Below, in pieces: positions 12,320 through 53,135 of a stretch of 64,000 nucleotides of DNA. A program made the translations under genes and the position numbers. The stretch's first letter is position 1. Each line of letters opens with the position of its first letter. This DNA is from a virus (taxonomy: Duplodnaviria; Heunggongvirae; Uroviricota; Caudoviricetes), in IMG/VR virus record IMGVR_UViG_3300045988_162656; one strand, 5' to 3'. The notes beneath the pieces were generated by a model, which saw only the letters and a list, made by a program, of their open reading frames with translations, searched no databases and had not been told where the DNA came from.

Positions 12320-12835
12320 TTAGTCACAGCATGATCCTGAGTAACTGGATGAACTTGAGGTATCGCATCCACCGTCATCCCATCCAGAGTGACAGGTCGC
12401 TCTACTGGAGTGGTGGTAATTGTCGTCGACGGAGGTGTGGTGATGGATGAATCCGGCATCAAAAGGCTCTGACCGGCTGGAACGGCTACCGTCGCCAGTG
12501 AAACTATAATGAGAACGTAGGCCATTGGTTTCAGCCTCTTTCTTTGAAAATTTTCCATTCGAACTGTCCTTGTTGTTTTTCTCCTTCACTAAAGGCCGTG
12601 CATTTTTCGCTTCGCGTGAAGAACCAGAGGCAACAATCGCCCACACGTTCGCAACAACTGACGCTTGATTATCTAAACGTTCATTCAGCAACCGAACGGT
12701 AGTCTCTAGTTCATCAAGGCGTGACATAACACGACCGCTAAATAATTCGGCCAAAATTTGACGTAAAGAACGAGGACGTTTAGTTACAGAAGTGAAATAG
12801 GTTTGACGTGCCATGTGGACTCCATCCAGTGTCAT
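12320..12835 (-). CDS. hypothetical protein with coiled-coil N-terminal region and Ser/Cys-rich C-terminus
   Basis: 171-aa ORF; overlaps alternative-frame ORF 12307-12558 encoding a hydrophobic-N-terminus Pro/Thr-rich peptide. Confidence 0.3.
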   Translation of the reverse strand: MTLDGVHMARQTYFTSVTKRPRSLRQILAELFSGRVMSRLDELETTVRLLNERLDNQASVVANVWAIVASGSSREAKNARPLVKEKNNKDSSNGKFSKKEAETNGLRSHYSFTGDGSRSSRSEPFDAGFIHHHTSVDDNYHHSSRATCHSGWDDGGCDTSSSSSYSGSCCD

Positions 12836-12959
12836 AAAGAGTTGCGGCTGGCAATCGCCAGCCGCCTTTCTCGTTCCATCCTGGAACTGTGTCTTACCGA
12901 CACATTGTCATCCTGACGCCGATAAGATACATGATTTATAATGATAGGTAAACACTTAC

Positions 12960-13553
12960 TTACTGTTTGTTATAAACAAAACCAATATCTTTCTTGTGAG
13001 GCATATCTGCTGCTGAAAAAGCTGCGATCTTCGCGAGTCGATCACATATTTCATTTTCACGATGCCCGGCGTGACCTTTAACCCACTTCCAGCGAACATT
13101 ATGTCGACTTGCGGCCTCATCCAGACGCTTCCACAGATCAACATTCTTTACCGGTTTTTTGTCAGAAGTCATCCATCCATTGCGTTTCCACCATTTCATC
13201 CACTGTGTCATGCCGTTTTTCAGATACTGGCTATCAGAGTGCAAAATAACGTTGCATGGATATTTCAAACGCTCCAGCCCGATAAGTGCCCCCATCATCT
13301 CCATGCGGTTATTGGTGGTGCTATGAAAACCATCTGAGAACTCGCGTTCCTCGCCACGATACTGGAGAACGATACCGTAACCGCCCGGGCCACCCGGATT
13401 TTTAAGGCAAGAGCCATCACTAAAGATTTTCACGGTTTTAAGCTGGGGATTGAACTCTACGACAGGCGTTGTGGGATTGGTGCGGGGAGAATTTTTGTTT
13501 TTGTCTTTTTTGCGAGTTTTTGCTTGCGGTCGGGCTGGTGTCTTCGTTGTCAT
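12960..13553 (-). CDS. rnhA: ribonuclease HI with basic N-terminal extension
   Basis: [42 protein letters not shown] motifs; start trimmed to MTTKTPARP with aggag RBS. Confidence 0.8.
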
Positions 13554-13649
13554 ATAAACTCCTGAATCAAGCGCCGCGCCGATTTTTCCTCGCGCGTGCG
13601 CACACGCGTGCGTGTTAATAATTATTAAAATAAACAAATTACTTCCCAG

Positions 13650-14030
13650 AACAGGTTTTTATAAACCTGAACTGAACGAACGAAGTGAGTGAAGTTCACC
13701 TCGAACGAAGTGAGAGGTTGTCTTTTCAGGTAATACTCTCCCAGGGAGGTGAGTATAAAATTCCTCACCAACCTGGTCGTTTCATAACCTGAAAAGCTAT
13801 GGTCTAAGTCTACTGCCAGCTTAGACTTGGGAAGTTATGGATGACAGCACCCCAGAACCGAGATCTTCCCACACTTTATGAAGGGGAGTACTGGATTCAA
13901 CCTCTCGAAACACCCCAGACTCGACAATCATAAAGTGACCCTTGTCTCCGCTCACTTTGGTTCCCCCTTCCCCGACACCTAAACGGCACCGGTTCTACGC
14001 TGGTAGTGAGCTTTTTTAAACCTGACGCCA
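13650..14030 (+). ncRNA. candidate structured non-coding RNA or cis element (orientation uncertain)
   Basis: 580 bp without ORFs >60 aa; nested inverted repeats (cttttcaggt/acctgaaaag enclosing two hairpins), direct repeat gaacgaagtgag x2, stem followed by tttttt at about 14030. Confidence 0.25.
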
Positions 14031-14134
14031 GTGACGCTTACCCCCACCCATCAGGTCGAGTCTCCAGTCTACGACTGGAAACTATCAGATCTTAGCACTT
14101 ACAATTCATCTTATGAATAGTTTGTACTTATCTA

Positions 14135-14389
14135 TCATTTCGATTGATTATTTTCTCGACCATGTAGTTGAACATTCAAGGCAAACACCTCGTTGATCAA
14201 CTCACCTAAAAGCTGTTCAACAAGTTCGCGATGCTCCCCAAGATGCAAGCACTTAATTGCCCACTCGTACAAGTTGAAAGCCTGCTCACGATCTTTCATC
14301 ATTTCACGAGCCTGGGCCAGAAAATCGCTGTCTACGAGCGCAACGACATTAGTCGGGTATGACATGTTGGTTTCCTTAAAGTGGTTCAT
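14135..14389 (-). CDS. hypothetical protein
   Basis: 84-aa ORF downstream of Dam-like gene. Confidence 0.35.
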   Translation of the reverse strand: MNHFKETNMSYPTNVVALVDSDFLAQAREMMKDREQAFNLYEWAIKCLHLGEHRELVEQLLGELINEVFALNVQLHGRENNQSK

Positions 14390-14552
14390 AAAATCGATTT
14401 TAAAGCGTCTGGGAAGGGGGTCTAGTGGATTCTGTAGTGATGTTCAGGTCTGGAGTCTCTGATACAAAACAGCCTGCTTCCGTATATTAATAATTAATAT
14501 GTAGTTATTTATATATATACAGAAGCAGGCTAATTACAGACGCCAGAACAAA

Positions 14553-15146
14553 CTAAGCAGCCTTCTTTGATGGTCTTTTTTTCCTGATCACATTCGCAGG
14601 ATCATACCCTCCCAGACTTTTCATGACGTCCAAAGGGATCTTGCTTATAGAGTGCCCAGCGTCCTGACAGAATCCTCGAAAAACAACGAGCATACTGCCA
14701 CCGGGGTTGATGTTTACTTCTACCTGACCCAAATTGACGTCAGGCTCGACAAACGCTACGCGGCCACCAGACAGAATAATCGTCTCATTCGCATACTCTG
14801 TTGCACGCTCATACCACTTTGTATCGAGGGATTGAGGAATTAGCATCACTGTAGTAACTCCGCGAGCCTGCTCACGTATAGCAGCATCAATCCAGGGGGA
14901 GATTTTGGAGTAGGGTGGATTGAGGAAGGCAATTGTACCTGGCTGTCCCCATTCAGATTTCAAAGCATCACGCTCAATGCCTATGAAATTAGGCAGCTTT
15001 GCGTTGTCCTTGTTGCAGGCAACGTCAACATCAAATGTCACTCCAAGATAACGTTGAATGGCAGAAAACAGCCAATCAGGTGTTCTCCAGAGGTCACGAA
15101 GAGAGTTGTCGCGCTTTCGCTGTTTGATTTTTTCGGCTGCAATCAT
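14553..15146 (-). CDS. phage-type Dam-like DNA N6-adenine methyltransferase
   Basis: DLWRTPDWLF and FLNPPYS motifs characteristic of small phage N6-adenine MTases. Confidence 0.75.
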   Translation of the reverse strand: MIAAEKIKQRKRDNSLRDLWRTPDWLFSAIQRYLGVTFDVDVACNKDNAKLPNFIGIERDALKSEWGQPGTIAFLNPPYSKISPWIDAAIREQARGVTTVMLIPQSLDTKWYERATEYANETIILSGGRVAFVEPDVNLGQVEVNINPGGSMLVVFRGFCQDAGHSISKIPLDVMKSLGGYDPANVIRKKRPSKKAA

Positions 15147-15328
15147 CTTCTTTCTCGATAGGTAAGCAAATACCTATTTTTGCATTTGATTTTATGTATG
15201 GCAATCAAATAAAACGCGCCAGAAATGCGAACAAGAAGCTCTCTGGCGCGTTTTTTTGGTGCTGGGTATGGGTTATCTTACCCAGCACTATAAAGCTCTC
15301 TATGGGCTTTATTTTCAGTAGGGGAACG

Positions 15329-16138
15329 TCATCCAATAGTGTACTCCGCGACAAACTTCTTAACGATCGGTGATTCTTCGTTCAATGTTAGATTTCCACC
15401 GTCTCTAACGGCAATTCCTGTAGCTGGAAATACAGCCATCATTTGCCCAGCCTGAGTTGACGCAGTGTTAAGCGGATACGGTTTTTCTGGATTGCTCATT
15501 AAAGCAATCTTAATACTATTACTTGTAGCCTTCTTTTCTGTAAGAAGGTGTCTCATGGAAATTACCGTGTAAACACTAATATCTGGACCTCCGCTAAACC
15601 AATTAAGAAGGTTTAATATCTTATCCTTCGCTTTGACAGGCGCGTTTTCGTAAGCGTCTAAGAAAATATCTTTTTCTAAGCCTGCTTTATTGAAAAACGA
15701 ATCATCTTTATCACTTAAAGTAAAACTAGGACCTCTTGCAGCACGAGTTTTTTTATTTGTATTGCTATCATTTGACTGTTGAACTTTTAATTCATCATTA
15801 ACCTCAACACAATCTTCAACCTCAATGATCCCCAACTGTTCTGGCTCATTTTCGGCAGCTTCACCACTTTCAGCGTTAATTACGTTTATAGGCTCATGCG
15901 CTAACTCCAACTCATTTAAAGCAGAGCTGAAATCACCTGCTTTTTCTTCATTGAACAGTTCTTCGGCAACATCATCAGAACTCATGGCTACGCCAGCATC
16001 GAGGCCGAGAAGCAGATCGTCAATATCATCAGTATTTTCAACCTGTGCAGCTTTTTTTACTGGTTCATCAAGTGATTGCAACATGGCTGTCAGCTCATCC
16101 AGATCATCATTTGTCATTACATTTTCAACCGAACTCAT
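15329..16138 (-). CDS. hypothetical acidic protein
   Basis: 269-aa ORF, highly acidic N-terminal half. Confidence 0.4.
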   Translation of the reverse strand: MSSVENVMTNDDLDELTAMLQSLDEPVKKAAQVENTDDIDDLLLGLDAGVAMSSDDVAEELFNEEKAGDFSSALNELELAHEPINVINAESGEAAENEPEQLGIIEVEDCVEVNDELKVQQSNDSNTNKKTRAARGPSFTLSDKDDSFFNKAGLEKDIFLDAYENAPVKAKDKILNLLNWFSGGPDISVYTVISMRHLLTEKKATSNSIKIALMSNPEKPYPLNTASTQAGQMMAVFPATGIAVRDGGNLTLNEESPIVKKFVAEYTIG

Positions 16139-52577: not shown

Positions 52578-52664
52578 TGGCGGAGAGTAATGGAATCGAA
52601 CCATCATCGCTTGCGCAATGGGACGGTTTTCAAGACCGCTTGAGCACCATGCTCCCTACTCTCC
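52578..52664 (-). tRNA. tRNA-Ser (anticodon TGA), type II with long variable arm
   Basis: hand-folded: acceptor GGAGAGT/ACTCTCC, anticodon loop CTTGAAA, T-loop TTCGATT, 3' CCA encoded. Confidence 0.8.
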
Positions 52665-52888
52665 GGCCGTTGTGGTGGCCGGTACTGAATCTCCGGCATA
52701 CGGTGCAGCCAATTAGGACTACGGACGATCACCGCTCGCGAAAGGGAAGATTTGCGGCCGCATTTCCCTAACATCCAAGAAAGCTATCGCATTAGTCTGC
52801 GAATCCACCACAACGGTAAGATCACTACCTTTCGACCAGTCATTGTGCACATGAACGACGATTAACCGTAATGATCTTATCGTTGTAT

Positions 52889-52964
52889 TGGTGCCGGTTA
52901 GCGGACTCGAACCGCTGACATCCTGCTTACAAGGCAGGCGCTCTACCAACTGAGCTAAACCGGC
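52889..52964 (-). tRNA. tRNA-Thr (anticodon TGT)
   Basis: acceptor GCCGGTT/AACCGGC, D-arm AGCTCAGTTGGTAGAGC, anticodon loop CTTGTAA, T-loop TTCGAGT, CCA encoded. Confidence 0.85.
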
Positions 52965-52968
52965 AATT

Positions 52969-53055
52969 TGGTGGGGAGTGATGGAGTCGAACCACCCGAG
53001 TTGCAATGACAGTAGATTTACAGTCTACCCAGCTGCCCCTACGGACTAACTCCCC
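52969..53055 (-). tRNA. tRNA-Tyr (anticodon GTA), type II
   Basis: acceptor GGGGAGT/ACTCCCC, anticodon loop ACTGTAAATCT, long variable arm, CCA encoded. Confidence 0.8.
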
Positions 53056-53060
53056 TAAAT

Positions 53061-53135
53061 TGGCGATGGTGGGTGGATTCGAACCACCGACCAGTTGGTT
53101 AACAGCCAACTGCTCTACCGCTGAGCTACACCATC
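53061..53135 (-). tRNA. tRNA-Asn (anticodon GTT)
   Basis: acceptor GATGGTG/CACCATC, anticodon loop CTGTTAA, T-loop TTCGAAT, CCA encoded. Confidence 0.85.

Follow-up and report, generated by a model that had tools for sequence, protein, structure and literature searches.

The DNA analysed here (64,000 nucleotides in all, referred to as the window) is that of an SSU5-like phage-plasmid with a 100% match to Escherichia phage CMS-2020a. Between positions 13554 and 14134 it poses a simple question: what is encoded by a segment that holds no gene and is better conserved than the genes on either side of it? A first-pass annotation had described the segment as gene-free, and so it proved, the longest open reading frame (ORF) being 49 aa once a TTG-started upstream extension of the rnhA frame, which reaches 13637 and was judged spurious, is set aside. 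The element is ultraconserved: its core, taken as about 13640-14060, is 92-100% identical among relatives with flanking genes at 65-80%, and, taken as 13650-14045, 88-100% identical among relatives with flanking genes at just 47-83%.

Distribution and gene neighborhood

A sensitive blastn search of 72,556 plasmids found the element in 687 records from at least eight enterobacterial genera. Nearly all of these plasmids are non-mobilizable (677/687), consistent with phage-plasmids, and the carriers are SSU5-type phage-plasmids of E. coli, Klebsiella, Salmonella and relatives. It is also present in 12 phage records and, among the 5,426 complete E. coli genomes searched, in 232. In pHCM2 of S. Typhi CT18 the locus is at 86,255-86,760. 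A host origin of the sequence was rejected, as those 5,426 genomes contain no chromosomal homologue except in two chromosomal places, presumably integrated copies. Across the collections searched there are two clades only, about 67% identical to each other; searches for divergent homologues in genome, metagenome and viral collections, using patterns and a protein query, returned these two clades and unrelated chance matches. An apparent third lineage (L158) was left out as a G-to-A converted, bisulfite-like assembly. None of the records annotates an RNA at the element and our literature search found no description of one; in full-text term counts of a 2026 heteroresistance preprint, neither RNase H nor non-coding RNA occurs. 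The family is previously undescribed.

The element lies within a DNA-metabolism module and adjoins rnhA in most genomes. In some relatives rnhA is replaced by other cargo, including convergent OLD/UvrD-like genes, and the element is retained; the 3' flank of the element is a recombination hot spot for cargo insertion. A few genes downstream of the element, SSU5, pHCM2 and others encode an Ant/Rha antirepressor that is read in the same direction. Inspected plasmid records are typed IncFIB (RepA replicon) or rep_cluster_488, and no rep gene adjoins the element in the window. On the other side, the 76-aa protein belongs to a family that homologue searches confined to element-bearing phage-plasmids. 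It matches no Pfam family, its AlphaFold model is three-helix (pLDDT 76.5), a PDB structure search gave no match (best E=3.1) and, counted from the translation, it is net acidic. An RNA-binding or Rop-like role is unsupported for such an acidic three-helix protein with no PDB match.

Indels of 1 and 2 nt at about 13760, 13910-13914 and 13987 hit every candidate ORF, and no ORF of at least 8 aa keeps its start and stop in both clades on either strand; the element is therefore non-coding. The conserved short ORF that could have explained the region is thus absent, and substitutions follow base pairing rather than codon positions. Phage Cyrano is nevertheless annotated with a 44-aa CDS inside the element, CYRAN_81 (135 nt), listed as an expressed "hypothetical protein." With this pattern of indels and substitutions, there is hardly any chance that CYRAN_81 or another micro-ORF accounts for the conservation and expression of the locus.

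Covariation, strand and architecture

Folding of the element, scored against dinucleotide shuffles, gave z values of -3.4 and -3.7 for the two strands, with 0/100 shuffles folding as well, so that both strands are more structured than chance. An alignment of 50 distinct sequences from both clades yielded a consensus fold of 99 pairs, in which 99.3% of cells are paired. Compensatory changes occur at 37/99 pairs, compared to 19±2.5 in shuffles (0/500) and 4-7 in slid controls, although with only two clades most of these "compensatory" counts derive from one deep split plus some within-clade changes. Three-state pairs are also present (e.g., UA 20 / UG 12 / CG 18). Structural constraint is accompanied by strand specificity: the minus strand has 561 G·U cells and the plus strand 9, and the mirrored plus-strand structure is only 88% paired. 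The G·U signature, the promoter motif and the 5' hairpin together place the RNA on the minus (gene) strand.

The predicted RNA comprises about 15 helices and at least one pseudoknot (Table 1). The stop codon that ends the 76-aa gene is immediately followed by an extended -10 motif, kept as TGCTAAGAT, TGATAAAAT, TTGTAGAAT or TGCTAACAT in all subclades amid variable surroundings, which we infer to be a sigma-70 promoter. The RNA would then begin at about 14083-14081 with hairpin P1, of which there are at least seven unrelated sequence versions, each forming a hairpin at the same offset; for promoter and P1 it is position that is conserved, not sequence. The 3' end would fall somewhere in 13615-13645. 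A terminator scan found no canonical intrinsic terminator after the RNA, so that read-through or a role in cis may occur. Beyond it, a 24-bp alternating purine-pyrimidine tract accompanies the module even where rnhA has been replaced; this tract may be part of the RNA. Within the fold, the invariant GAGAGGUUG is a perfect complement of CAACCUCUC (13712-13720), also invariant, and the two may form a tertiary pairing.

Table 1. Coordinates of the predicted RNA, its parts and the flanking genes
Feature	Position	Strand	Remarks
76-aa gene	14135-14365	minus	One flank of gap 13554-14134
Extended -10 promoter motif TGCTAAGAT (TGnTAnnAT)	14089-14097	minus	Putative; weak -35
Whole predicted ncRNA	13620-14083	minus	About 445-465 nt, an estimated 150 kDa; conservation, alignment, covariation, strand test, Cyrano RNA-seq
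P1, 5'-terminal hairpin	14059-14083	minus	11 bp in window; 6 nt past -10 hexamer
P2 helix	14020-14056	minus	13 pairs, 4 compensatory (AU 34 / GC 15; CG 29 / UA 11); interior has invariant G-rich UGGGUGGGGG, 14041-14049
P3 junction domain	13951-14010	minus	Encloses short helices P4-P6; helix 3, 3/5 pairs compensatory (one pair UA 20 / CG 18 / UG 12); helix 4, GU/AU/GC three-state pairs; invariant G-tract GGGGAAGGGGG, 13963-13973
P8-P10 domain	13872-13937	minus	9-bp stem (13929-13937 with 13872-13880), inner stem, apical region with invariant GAGAGGUUG, 13898-13906; compensatory pairs 6/9 in helix 8, 3/5 in helix 9
P11-P12 domain	13828-13871	minus	Invariant GAUCU and UUCUGGGGU; helix 11, 3/7 pairs compensatory, 100% paired; helix 12, 1 compensatory pair plus GU/GC/AU
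P13 hairpin	13802-13826	minus	10 pairs, 5 compensatory, 100% paired
P14 hairpin	13783-13801	minus	Loop CUUUUCAGG is pseudoknot 5' strand; stem CAUAA/UUAUG in main clade, CAUAG/CUAUG in distant clade
P15 long hairpin	13738-13779	minus	Inside pseudoknot; 11 pairs, 3 compensatory
Pseudoknot 3' strand CCUGAAAAG	13722-13730	minus	Pairs with P14 loop, 13788-13796; main clade CUUUUCAGG/CCUGAAAAG, 9 bp; distant clade UUUCUGG/CCAGAA(A), 6-7 bp, A-U to U-A swap
P16 hairpin	13699-13717	minus	Helix 16 invariant
P17 hairpin	13668-13698	minus	3/6 pairs compensatory
3' region	13615-13667	minus	Alternative small hairpins (CAGGUUU/AAACCUG, or CCUG-UUC-UGGG), then U-rich, AT-rich variable spacer; RNA 3' end probably here
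Alternating purine-pyrimidine tract CACGCACGCGTGTGCGCACGCGCG (minus strand), 24 bp, and CGCGCGAGGAAAAATCG box	13575-13612		
rnhA	12960-13556	minus	Other flank of gap

Most of what the first-pass annotation had observed was borne out. Its long-range inverted repeat is present (13722-13734 with 13784-13796; 13 nt, 92% complementary), and the 10-bp pairing it singled out is one stem of the covarying pseudoknot. The agtcta-N9-tagact hairpin covaries and corresponds to P13, and the reported density of hairpins is reflected in many further inverted repeats, in the comparison with dinucleotide shuffles and in strong covariation; the check it had proposed, for compensatory changes in relatives, is answered by the 37 pairs. 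The direct repeat CGAACGAAGTGAG exists as two exact copies (13677-13689 and 13702-13714), but the pair is not kept across the clades: in the distant clade, copy two has a 7-nt deletion. On the minus strand, each copy falls as (C/A)UUCGUUCG in the loop of P16 or P17, and the UUCGUUCG core is present in both loops in both clades. The proposed plus-strand terminator near 14030 did not appear in a terminator scan; the T-run (14012-14017) corresponds, in the minus-strand RNA, to an A-rich linker that is unpaired. The idea of a structured RNA is thus strongly upheld by ultraconservation, covariation, the conserved promoter motif and published expression data, but that of a transcript running opposite to the genes is contradicted by the G·U asymmetry, the promoter motif and the 5' hairpin.

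An alternative hypothesis is that the element acts purely as DNA (an iteron-type lytic origin, a pac or cos site, or a recombination site) and that its hairpins are incidental or form in single-stranded DNA. The direct repeat with its 25-bp spacing, the many inverted repeats, the cargo hot spot in the adjacent flank and one phage record that begins 305 bp away would fit such a site. However, the repeat pair is not conserved in the distant clade, and its motif recurs elsewhere in the 64-kb window no more often than chance allows. Of the multiple phased direct repeats that an iteron or DnaA-type origin would have, the element shows two copies only, the second disrupted in the distant clade. The SSU5 and Cyrano records start elsewhere, and 687 records opened at arbitrary points would give about a dozen starts within 1 kb by chance; no consistent starts or ends of phage records, skew change or other origin signature was found at the element. 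Strand-specific G·U covariation, the conserved promoter motif and RNA abundance all indicate RNA, making a DNA-level site, suggested in the first-pass annotation and lacking positive support, very unlikely.

Expression and rival accounts of the RNA

Published transcriptomes of E. coli LF82 carrying Cyrano, whose sequence is 97% identical to the window at the element, give CYRAN_81 117 normalized reads, compared to 9.5 for the 76-aa gene and 8.4 for rnhA (PMC9928086 Table 1, S1 Table). The spot is about 12-fold above both neighbors, the reads covering only the central 135 nt of the element, and the RNA is abundant in lysogens independently of its neighbors. On the log2 scale, CYRAN_81 stood at 6.8-6.9 (LB, overnight), 9.0-9.3 (medium, 1 h) and 10.3 (macrophages, 6 h), a rise of about 10-fold (PMC9928086).

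These data bear on whether the RNA is instead a cis-acting leader that controls rnhA and the variable cargo through processive antitermination or attenuation, in the manner of put in phage HK022. The element and the genes downstream of it are read in one direction with no canonical terminator to separate them, mutually exclusive 3' helices could form a switch, and the cargo immediately beyond is exchanged in the manner of a moron expression site. In LF82, however, reads drop about 14-fold from element to rnhA, so that most transcripts must end or be processed before rnhA. The genes downstream of the element in one relative (L157) are convergently oriented, and about 450 nt with about 15 helices far exceeds known leaders of this type. 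We consider a leader improbable.

About equally improbable is a precursor of an immunity-type antisense RNA, which, like P1 c4 or P4 CI, would be processed into small RNAs; by base pairing with the phage-plasmid's lytic or antirepressor transcripts these would maintain lysogeny. Expression in the lysogen near that of the putative repressor (12x compared to 10x background), the downstream Ant/Rha gene in SSU5, pHCM2 and others, and a motif repeated in two hairpin loops are what such a precursor might show. Like the element, P1/P7 c4 and P4 CI are non-coding RNAs of phage-plasmids or satellites, expressed in the prophage or plasmid state from their own promoters, upstream of antirepressor-containing operons. 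In contrast, they are processed antisense RNAs of 70-80 nt with identified targets, and the element is about 6 times larger and conserved over the whole 400 nt rather than in a short seed. Complementary targets in the 64-kb window, which covers the genome but for about 45 kb, were at chance level only (best 12 nt at E=1.4; motif search, 3 matches compared to 1.5 expected), no Rfam family, C4 among them, was matched, and the window version has no downstream ant gene. A 10-nt match of a G-tract to the promoter region of the 76-aa gene (14411-14420) was discarded as a target, not being conserved.

A further possibility, unlikely but ahead of the two just described, is an RNA-primed replication origin similar to that of ColE1. 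Here the folded G-rich transcript would form a lasting hybrid with its C-rich template, at or close to the AT-rich stretch and alternating CG/CA tract that follow downstream, and RNase HI, often encoded just downstream, would cut the hybrid into a leading-strand primer. The resemblance to RNA II of ColE1 lies in size (about 0.5 kb), several stem-loops, constitutive expression in the plasmid state, an AT-rich region that follows and the link to RNase HI. The transcript is rich in G (GC skew on the plus strand of -0.22 to -0.33 over 13800-14100) with invariant G-tracts, the AT-rich spacer and the conserved 24-bp tract follow the module and move with it, and rnhA is frequently adjacent, within a DNA-metabolism module. 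The G-rich transcript and the adjacency of rnhA would suit an R-loop role as well as they suit the favored reading; G-richness and the AT-rich stretch agree with a hybrid and a DNA synthesis start there but are not diagnostic. However, the element survives where rnhA is not adjacent, and the plasmids are already typed as IncFIB/RepA replicons. Plasmid matches are to enterobacterial phage-plasmid-type records only, with no relatedness to ColE1-family origins in blastn of the 72,556 plasmids and no Rfam match, RNA I included. One consensus promoter scan, run on the window sequence, found no antisense promoter of the RNA I type, which would be expected within the first ~110 nt of the RNA, and none pointing inward over its 5' part; the lone plus-strand promoter-like site nearby (14076-14105) is level with the inferred start or upstream of it and is directed away from the RNA. 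Invariant loops and a pseudoknot also suggest more than hybrid formation.

Comparison with known RNAs and a possible role

A cmscan search against Rfam 15 (E-value mode, 12500-15500, both strands) gave chance-level matches only in the element, namely HCV_SL2531 (21.5 bits; gathering threshold 56) and mir-375 (15.1; 46.7). The families covered include C4, RNAI, 6S, CsrB, tmRNA, RNase P, OLE, GOLLD, ROOL, HEARO and group I/II introns, and ARAGORN found no tRNA or tmRNA at the element. No hok/sok-like type I toxin ORF is conserved in both clades on either strand, and for a ToxI-like type III array there is one 13-nt repeat pair only, not in tandem, beside a neighbor without a Pfam family. Like the protein-sponge RNAs CsrB and RsmZ, the element is a stable RNA with a short motif repeated in its loops, but with two copies of UUCGUUCG only, a motif unrelated to GGA and conserved mass mostly outside the repeats. 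There is also a likeness to the large "ornate" RNAs OLE, GOLLD, ROOL and raiA, whose functions are at most partly known. These are abundant non-coding RNAs of several hundred nucleotides with pseudoknots, many covarying helices and unpaired nucleotides that do not vary; phages or mobile elements often carry them, and they were discovered as conserved "empty" intergenic regions. Those classes occur mainly in Gram-positive bacteria and the element in Enterobacterales phage-plasmids; it has no Rfam sequence or structure match and no flanking tRNAs, and we do not claim membership in any of these classes.

We therefore favor, at a probability of roughly 60%, a new family of large structured non-coding RNA that has its own promoter and most likely acts in trans. 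In this family, minus-strand transcription from the sigma-70 extended -10 promoter would yield an RNA whose 5' end is protected by a hairpin and whose remainder folds into the other helices and the pseudoknot; it would be made constitutively for as long as the phage-plasmid persists in its plasmid form. The stable RNA, neither a leader of rnhA nor a DNA site, would bind a host or phage-plasmid protein, or another RNA. Its binding surfaces would be the invariant unpaired elements, namely the two UUCGUUCG loops, the G-tracts UGGGUGGGGG and GGGGAAGGGGG, and GAGAGGUUG. We speculate further, at somewhat less than even odds, that the element is the founding member of a class of large pseudoknotted RNAs specific to SSU5-type phage-plasmids, a stable, stress-responsive machine or scaffold made in the carrier state rather than a conventional base-pairing small RNA, leader or origin. 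As a scaffold it might sequester or re-program a conserved host factor, counter or provide defense, or set copy number.

SSU5-type phage-plasmids, among them pHCM2 of S. Typhi, pLF82/Cyrano and many "IncFIB" plasmids of Klebsiella and Enterobacter, are frequent in clinical Enterobacterales, bring resistance and defense cargo with them and have a biology that is for the most part unexplored. In this part of their genome, the 400 bp that are conserved best encode an abundant, intricately folded RNA that has gone unannotated, the locus being mis-annotated as a hypothetical protein or an over-long rnhA. It is a proteobacterial addition to the very few large structured bacterial RNAs that have no known function. 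The element is directly testable, with tractable hosts and with induction and transcriptome data in existence for LF82/Cyrano, and the rise of its RNA in macrophages provides a concrete handle on phage-plasmid maintenance or host manipulation.

Conservation and distribution of the intergenic element

Across 13400-14300, Escherichia phage CMS-2020a matches the window at 100% identity, phages PhiR41_1 and Cyrano at 97-98%, and Salmonella phage SSU5 and Klebsiella relatives at ~81-85%. These matches identify the window as an SSU5-type phage-plasmid. Genes around the 580-bp gap (13554-14134) lie on the minus strand throughout. The first-pass annotation had described this gap as gene-free, and its longest ORF is indeed ≤49 aa, except where the rnhA frame is read from an upstream TTG start unused in curated records. 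Existing annotations, where there are any, call the element a hypothetical protein or absorb it into an over-long rnhA call.

When ten diverse loci were aligned, identity was 88-100% in the core of the element (13650-14045), compared to 47-83% in the flanking rnhA and 76-aa genes. Indels of 1 and 2 nt hit every small ORF, and no ORF on either strand was conserved in both clades of the element, leaving a conserved short ORF without support as an explanation. Together, these alignment features indicate that the element is non-coding and constrained more strongly than the adjoining proteins.

Sensitive blastn placed the segment in 12 phage records and 687 plasmid records (Klebsiella 310, Escherichia 195, Enterobacter 88, Salmonella 49, with Citrobacter, Cronobacter, Shigella, Raoultella and Kluyvera also represented), including pHCM2 of S. 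Typhi CT18. It was present in 232 of 5,426 complete E. coli genomes, nearly always plasmid-borne; none of the 232 annotates an RNA there, and no chromosomal counterpart was found in the 5,426. The 76-aa protein family is restricted to these elements, and tracing its most divergent members revealed a second clade (plasmids of Enterobacter sp. CP102 and Cronobacter sp. JZ38, and metagenome contigs) only ~67% identical to the window element. Pattern scans of viral, genome and metagenome collections gave no third clade. One apparent variant (Logan SRR8137545 contig, L158) was discarded: A stands in place of G at almost all positions over hundreds of bases, which suggests that bisulfite-type converted reads were assembled and that this is not a true variant. 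A truncated module in a Buttiauxella gaviniae contig (L163; window-equivalent 13627-13959 only, 95.5% identity) is missing ~100 nt on the promoter side and runs into unrelated sequence, and is therefore probably a decayed phage-plasmid remnant.

The gene downstream is exchangeable. rnhA is absent or replaced in pSC7 (two hypothetical genes instead), pECL-90-1 (betT and a DUF2254 gene) and a Buttiauxella plasmid (OLD-family ATPase/TOPRIM and UvrD-like helicase genes in convergent orientation, similar to a Gabija defence system). As all three keep the element joined to the 76-aa gene, it is not simply an rnhA leader. Cargo junctions lie just past a CGCGCGAG(G/A)AAA box conserved in both clades, also where rnhA is replaced. 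Flanks of loci L006, L009 and L157, around window 13540-13580, mark the 3' side of the module as a cargo-exchange hot spot. The phage-plasmid RNase HI of the window carries a ~40-residue lysine/arginine/proline-rich N-terminal extension before its Pfam RNase_H domain (residues 41-179); in SSU5 and some RefSeq records the N-terminus is annotated longer still, reaching into the conserved non-coding module.

Features of the element and its surroundings (window coordinates)
Feature	Position	Strand	Remark
DnaQ-like exonuclease		minus	first in transcription order
Hypothetical gene		minus	after DnaQ-like exonuclease
Dam-family methyltransferase	14553..15146	minus	third in transcription order; ~450 bp upstream of RNA
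Long near-perfect hairpin	14466-14536		between Dam and 76-aa genes; AGCCTGCTTC...GAAGCAGGCT, AT-rich loop, then GUUUUGUAU on minus strand; probably Dam operon terminator; chance miRNA-like Rfam matches only
Promoter-like site, 76-aa gene	14424-14397		after the hairpin
76-aa protein (phrog_5343)	14135..14365	minus	function unassigned; directly before gap
AGATCT, first copy	14087-14098		E. coli subclade only: overlaps -10/start region of RNA promoter
Predicted transcription start	~14083-14081	minus	
Closing helix, 3 bp	13940-13942 with 13728-13730	minus	
Candidate tertiary contact	13898-13906 with 13712-13720	minus	GAGAGGUUG with CAACCUCUC
AGATCT, second copy	13861-13872		inside RNA; GAUCU there invariant in both clades
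Long-range pairing	13722-13734 with 13784-13796		
Pseudoknot hairpin	13783-13801	minus	
Direct repeat	13677-13689 and 13702-13714		exact, 13 nt
Alternating pyrimidine-purine tract	13589-13612		CACGCACGCGTGTGCGCACGCGCG on minus strand; perfect, 24 bp, Z-DNA-prone; beyond AT-rich spacer
RNase HI (rnhA)	12960..13556	minus	directly after gap; further small genes then
Partial CsrB/RsmB covariance-model match	12818-12918	minus	intergenic, just downstream of rnhA; weak, 17.6 bits, E=0.044 (gathering score 71); probably chance
Four-tRNA cluster	52578-53135	minus	Ser-tga, Thr-tgt, Tyr-gta, Asn-gtt

Fold, strand and pseudoknot

The long-range pairing, direct repeat and agtcta...tagact hairpin picked out in the first pass are all present, with many further inverted repeats, and the impression of structure beyond chance was borne out, as both strands out-fold dinucleotide shuffles (z -3.4 and -3.7). 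From 92 unique sequences, RNAalifold predicted structures for either strand, but the great majority of non-Watson-Crick intermediates were A·C in the plus-strand reading, equivalent to G·U on the minus strand (typical three-state pairs, plus-strand reading: TA 41 / CG 33 / CA 18; AC 59 / GC 21 / AT 12).

Fifty distinct sequences aligned in RNA sense (set A1) yielded a consensus fold of 101 pairs, 37 with compensatory changes; one spurious long-range helix was dropped, and the figures that follow rest on the remaining 99. Standard pairs filled 99.3% of cells, against 94.7% in shuffles and 32-50% with partners slid 1-3 columns. Compensatory changes affected 37 pairs, against 19±2.5 in shuffles (0 of 500 reached 37) and 4-7 after sliding, and the covariation score was 0.221 against 0.128 in shuffles. 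Read on the plus strand, the 99 pairs were only 88% paired, and G·U cells numbered 561 on minus and 9 on plus, which argues against a plus-strand RNA. A purely DNA site (lytic origin, pac or recombination site), as suggested in the first pass, is essentially excluded, as is a micro-protein. Because the sequences fall into just two deep clades, a single split accounts for many of the compensatory cells, and short helices taken one by one are therefore insecure (the closing helix, P5, P6 and P10 among helices P1-P17, numbered 5' to 3'); the long helices P2, P3, P8, P9, P11, P13, P15 and P17 are secure. Unpaired elements are invariant in two loops with UUCGUUCG, two G-tracts, GAUCU/UUCUGGGGU and CUGGCA.

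Covariation identifies the long-range pairing as a pseudoknot. The hairpin stem changes from CAUAA/UUAUG in the main, window-type clade to CAUAG/CUAUG in the distant clade, and its loop CUUUUCAGG pairs with CCUGAAAAG at 13722-13730; the distant clade has loop UUUCUGG and partner CCAGAA(A), with an A-U to U-A swap. Both sides of a second, candidate tertiary contact are invariant, placing it beyond the reach of covariation.

Predicted ends and expression

Directly 3' of the 76-aa gene stop codon, an extended -10 motif (TGCTAAGAT, TGATAAAAT, TTGTAGAAT or TGCTAACAT) is kept in every subclade amid variable sequence, and exactly 6 nt past it in every subclade lies a hairpin with at least seven versions of unrelated sequence. 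Such an arrangement is what a transcription start would be expected to show if the RNA opened with a stabilising stem-loop. AGATCT contains a Dam GATC site, and Dam methylation could conceivably modulate the E. coli-subclade promoter. Conservation ends at ...CUGGGAAGUAA (~13640), past which lie small hairpins that cannot form together and a variable spacer, U-rich and AT-rich. Beyond the spacer is a CGCGCGAGGAAAAA box; CGCGCGAGGAAAAATCG follows the 24-bp tract, the box running to ~13575, and tract and box both remain with the module when the downstream gene changes. The terminator scan of the window found neither a canonical terminator after the RNA nor the plus-strand terminator proposed near 14030.

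In Cyrano, a phage-plasmid of E. coli LF82, the annotated 44-aa ORF CYRAN_81 (record 78657-78791) corresponds to ~13821-13955 on the window minus strand, within the element. In LB overnight culture it had 117 normalised reads, compared to 9.5 for the 76-aa gene CYRAN_80, 8.4 for rnhA (CYRAN_82) and 6.0 for the Dam gene CYRAN_79 (Misson et al. S1 Table, PMC9928086). Its log2 values were 6.8-6.9 in LB overnight, 9.0-9.3 and 6.9 after 1 h and 6 h in medium, and 8.2-9.0 and 10.3 after 1 h and 6 h in macrophages (PMC9928086). Since both neighbors stayed at 2.6-5.8 across all conditions (PMC9928086), the element, judged from reads over this 135-nt ORF, appears to be an independent, abundant, condition-responsive carrier-state transcript.

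Identity and putative function

Taken together, conservation, covariation, the conserved promoter motif and 5' hairpin, and the published Cyrano expression strongly support the structured ncRNA proposed in the first pass: a new, multi-domain, pseudoknotted RNA of ~450 nt with a predicted promoter of its own. The element matched no Rfam family and contained no tRNA or tmRNA; neither Rfam 15 nor the searchable literature describes the RNA. Most likely, it would be a stable RNA acting in trans, bound to a conserved partner. With this fit its abundance by itself, with reads falling ~14-fold before rnhA, its persistence when downstream cargo is exchanged or convergent, its predicted protective 5' hairpin and its invariant unpaired elements. 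Complementary targets within the 64-kb window were at chance level only. The 76-aa protein is an unlikely RNA binder, being acidic and three-helix with no informative match in structural comparison.

The most attractive alternative, by analogy, is that the transcript could be an R-loop primer like ColE1 RNA II. It is G-rich, with an AT-rich stretch and Z-DNA-prone tract downstream, rnhA often adjoining and a DNA-metabolism gene context; however, it lacks homology to ColE1 RNA II, a consensus scan of the window showed no antisense partner promoter, adjacent rnhA is not required, and RepA replicons are already present on the plasmids. A leader or antitermination RNA acting in cis, or an immunity-RNA precursor, is a less probable reading than such a primer. 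As a trans-acting RNA or otherwise, the element represents a new RNA family, carried by a phage-plasmid group that is clinically widespread; it is directly testable, with published evidence of strong, regulated expression.
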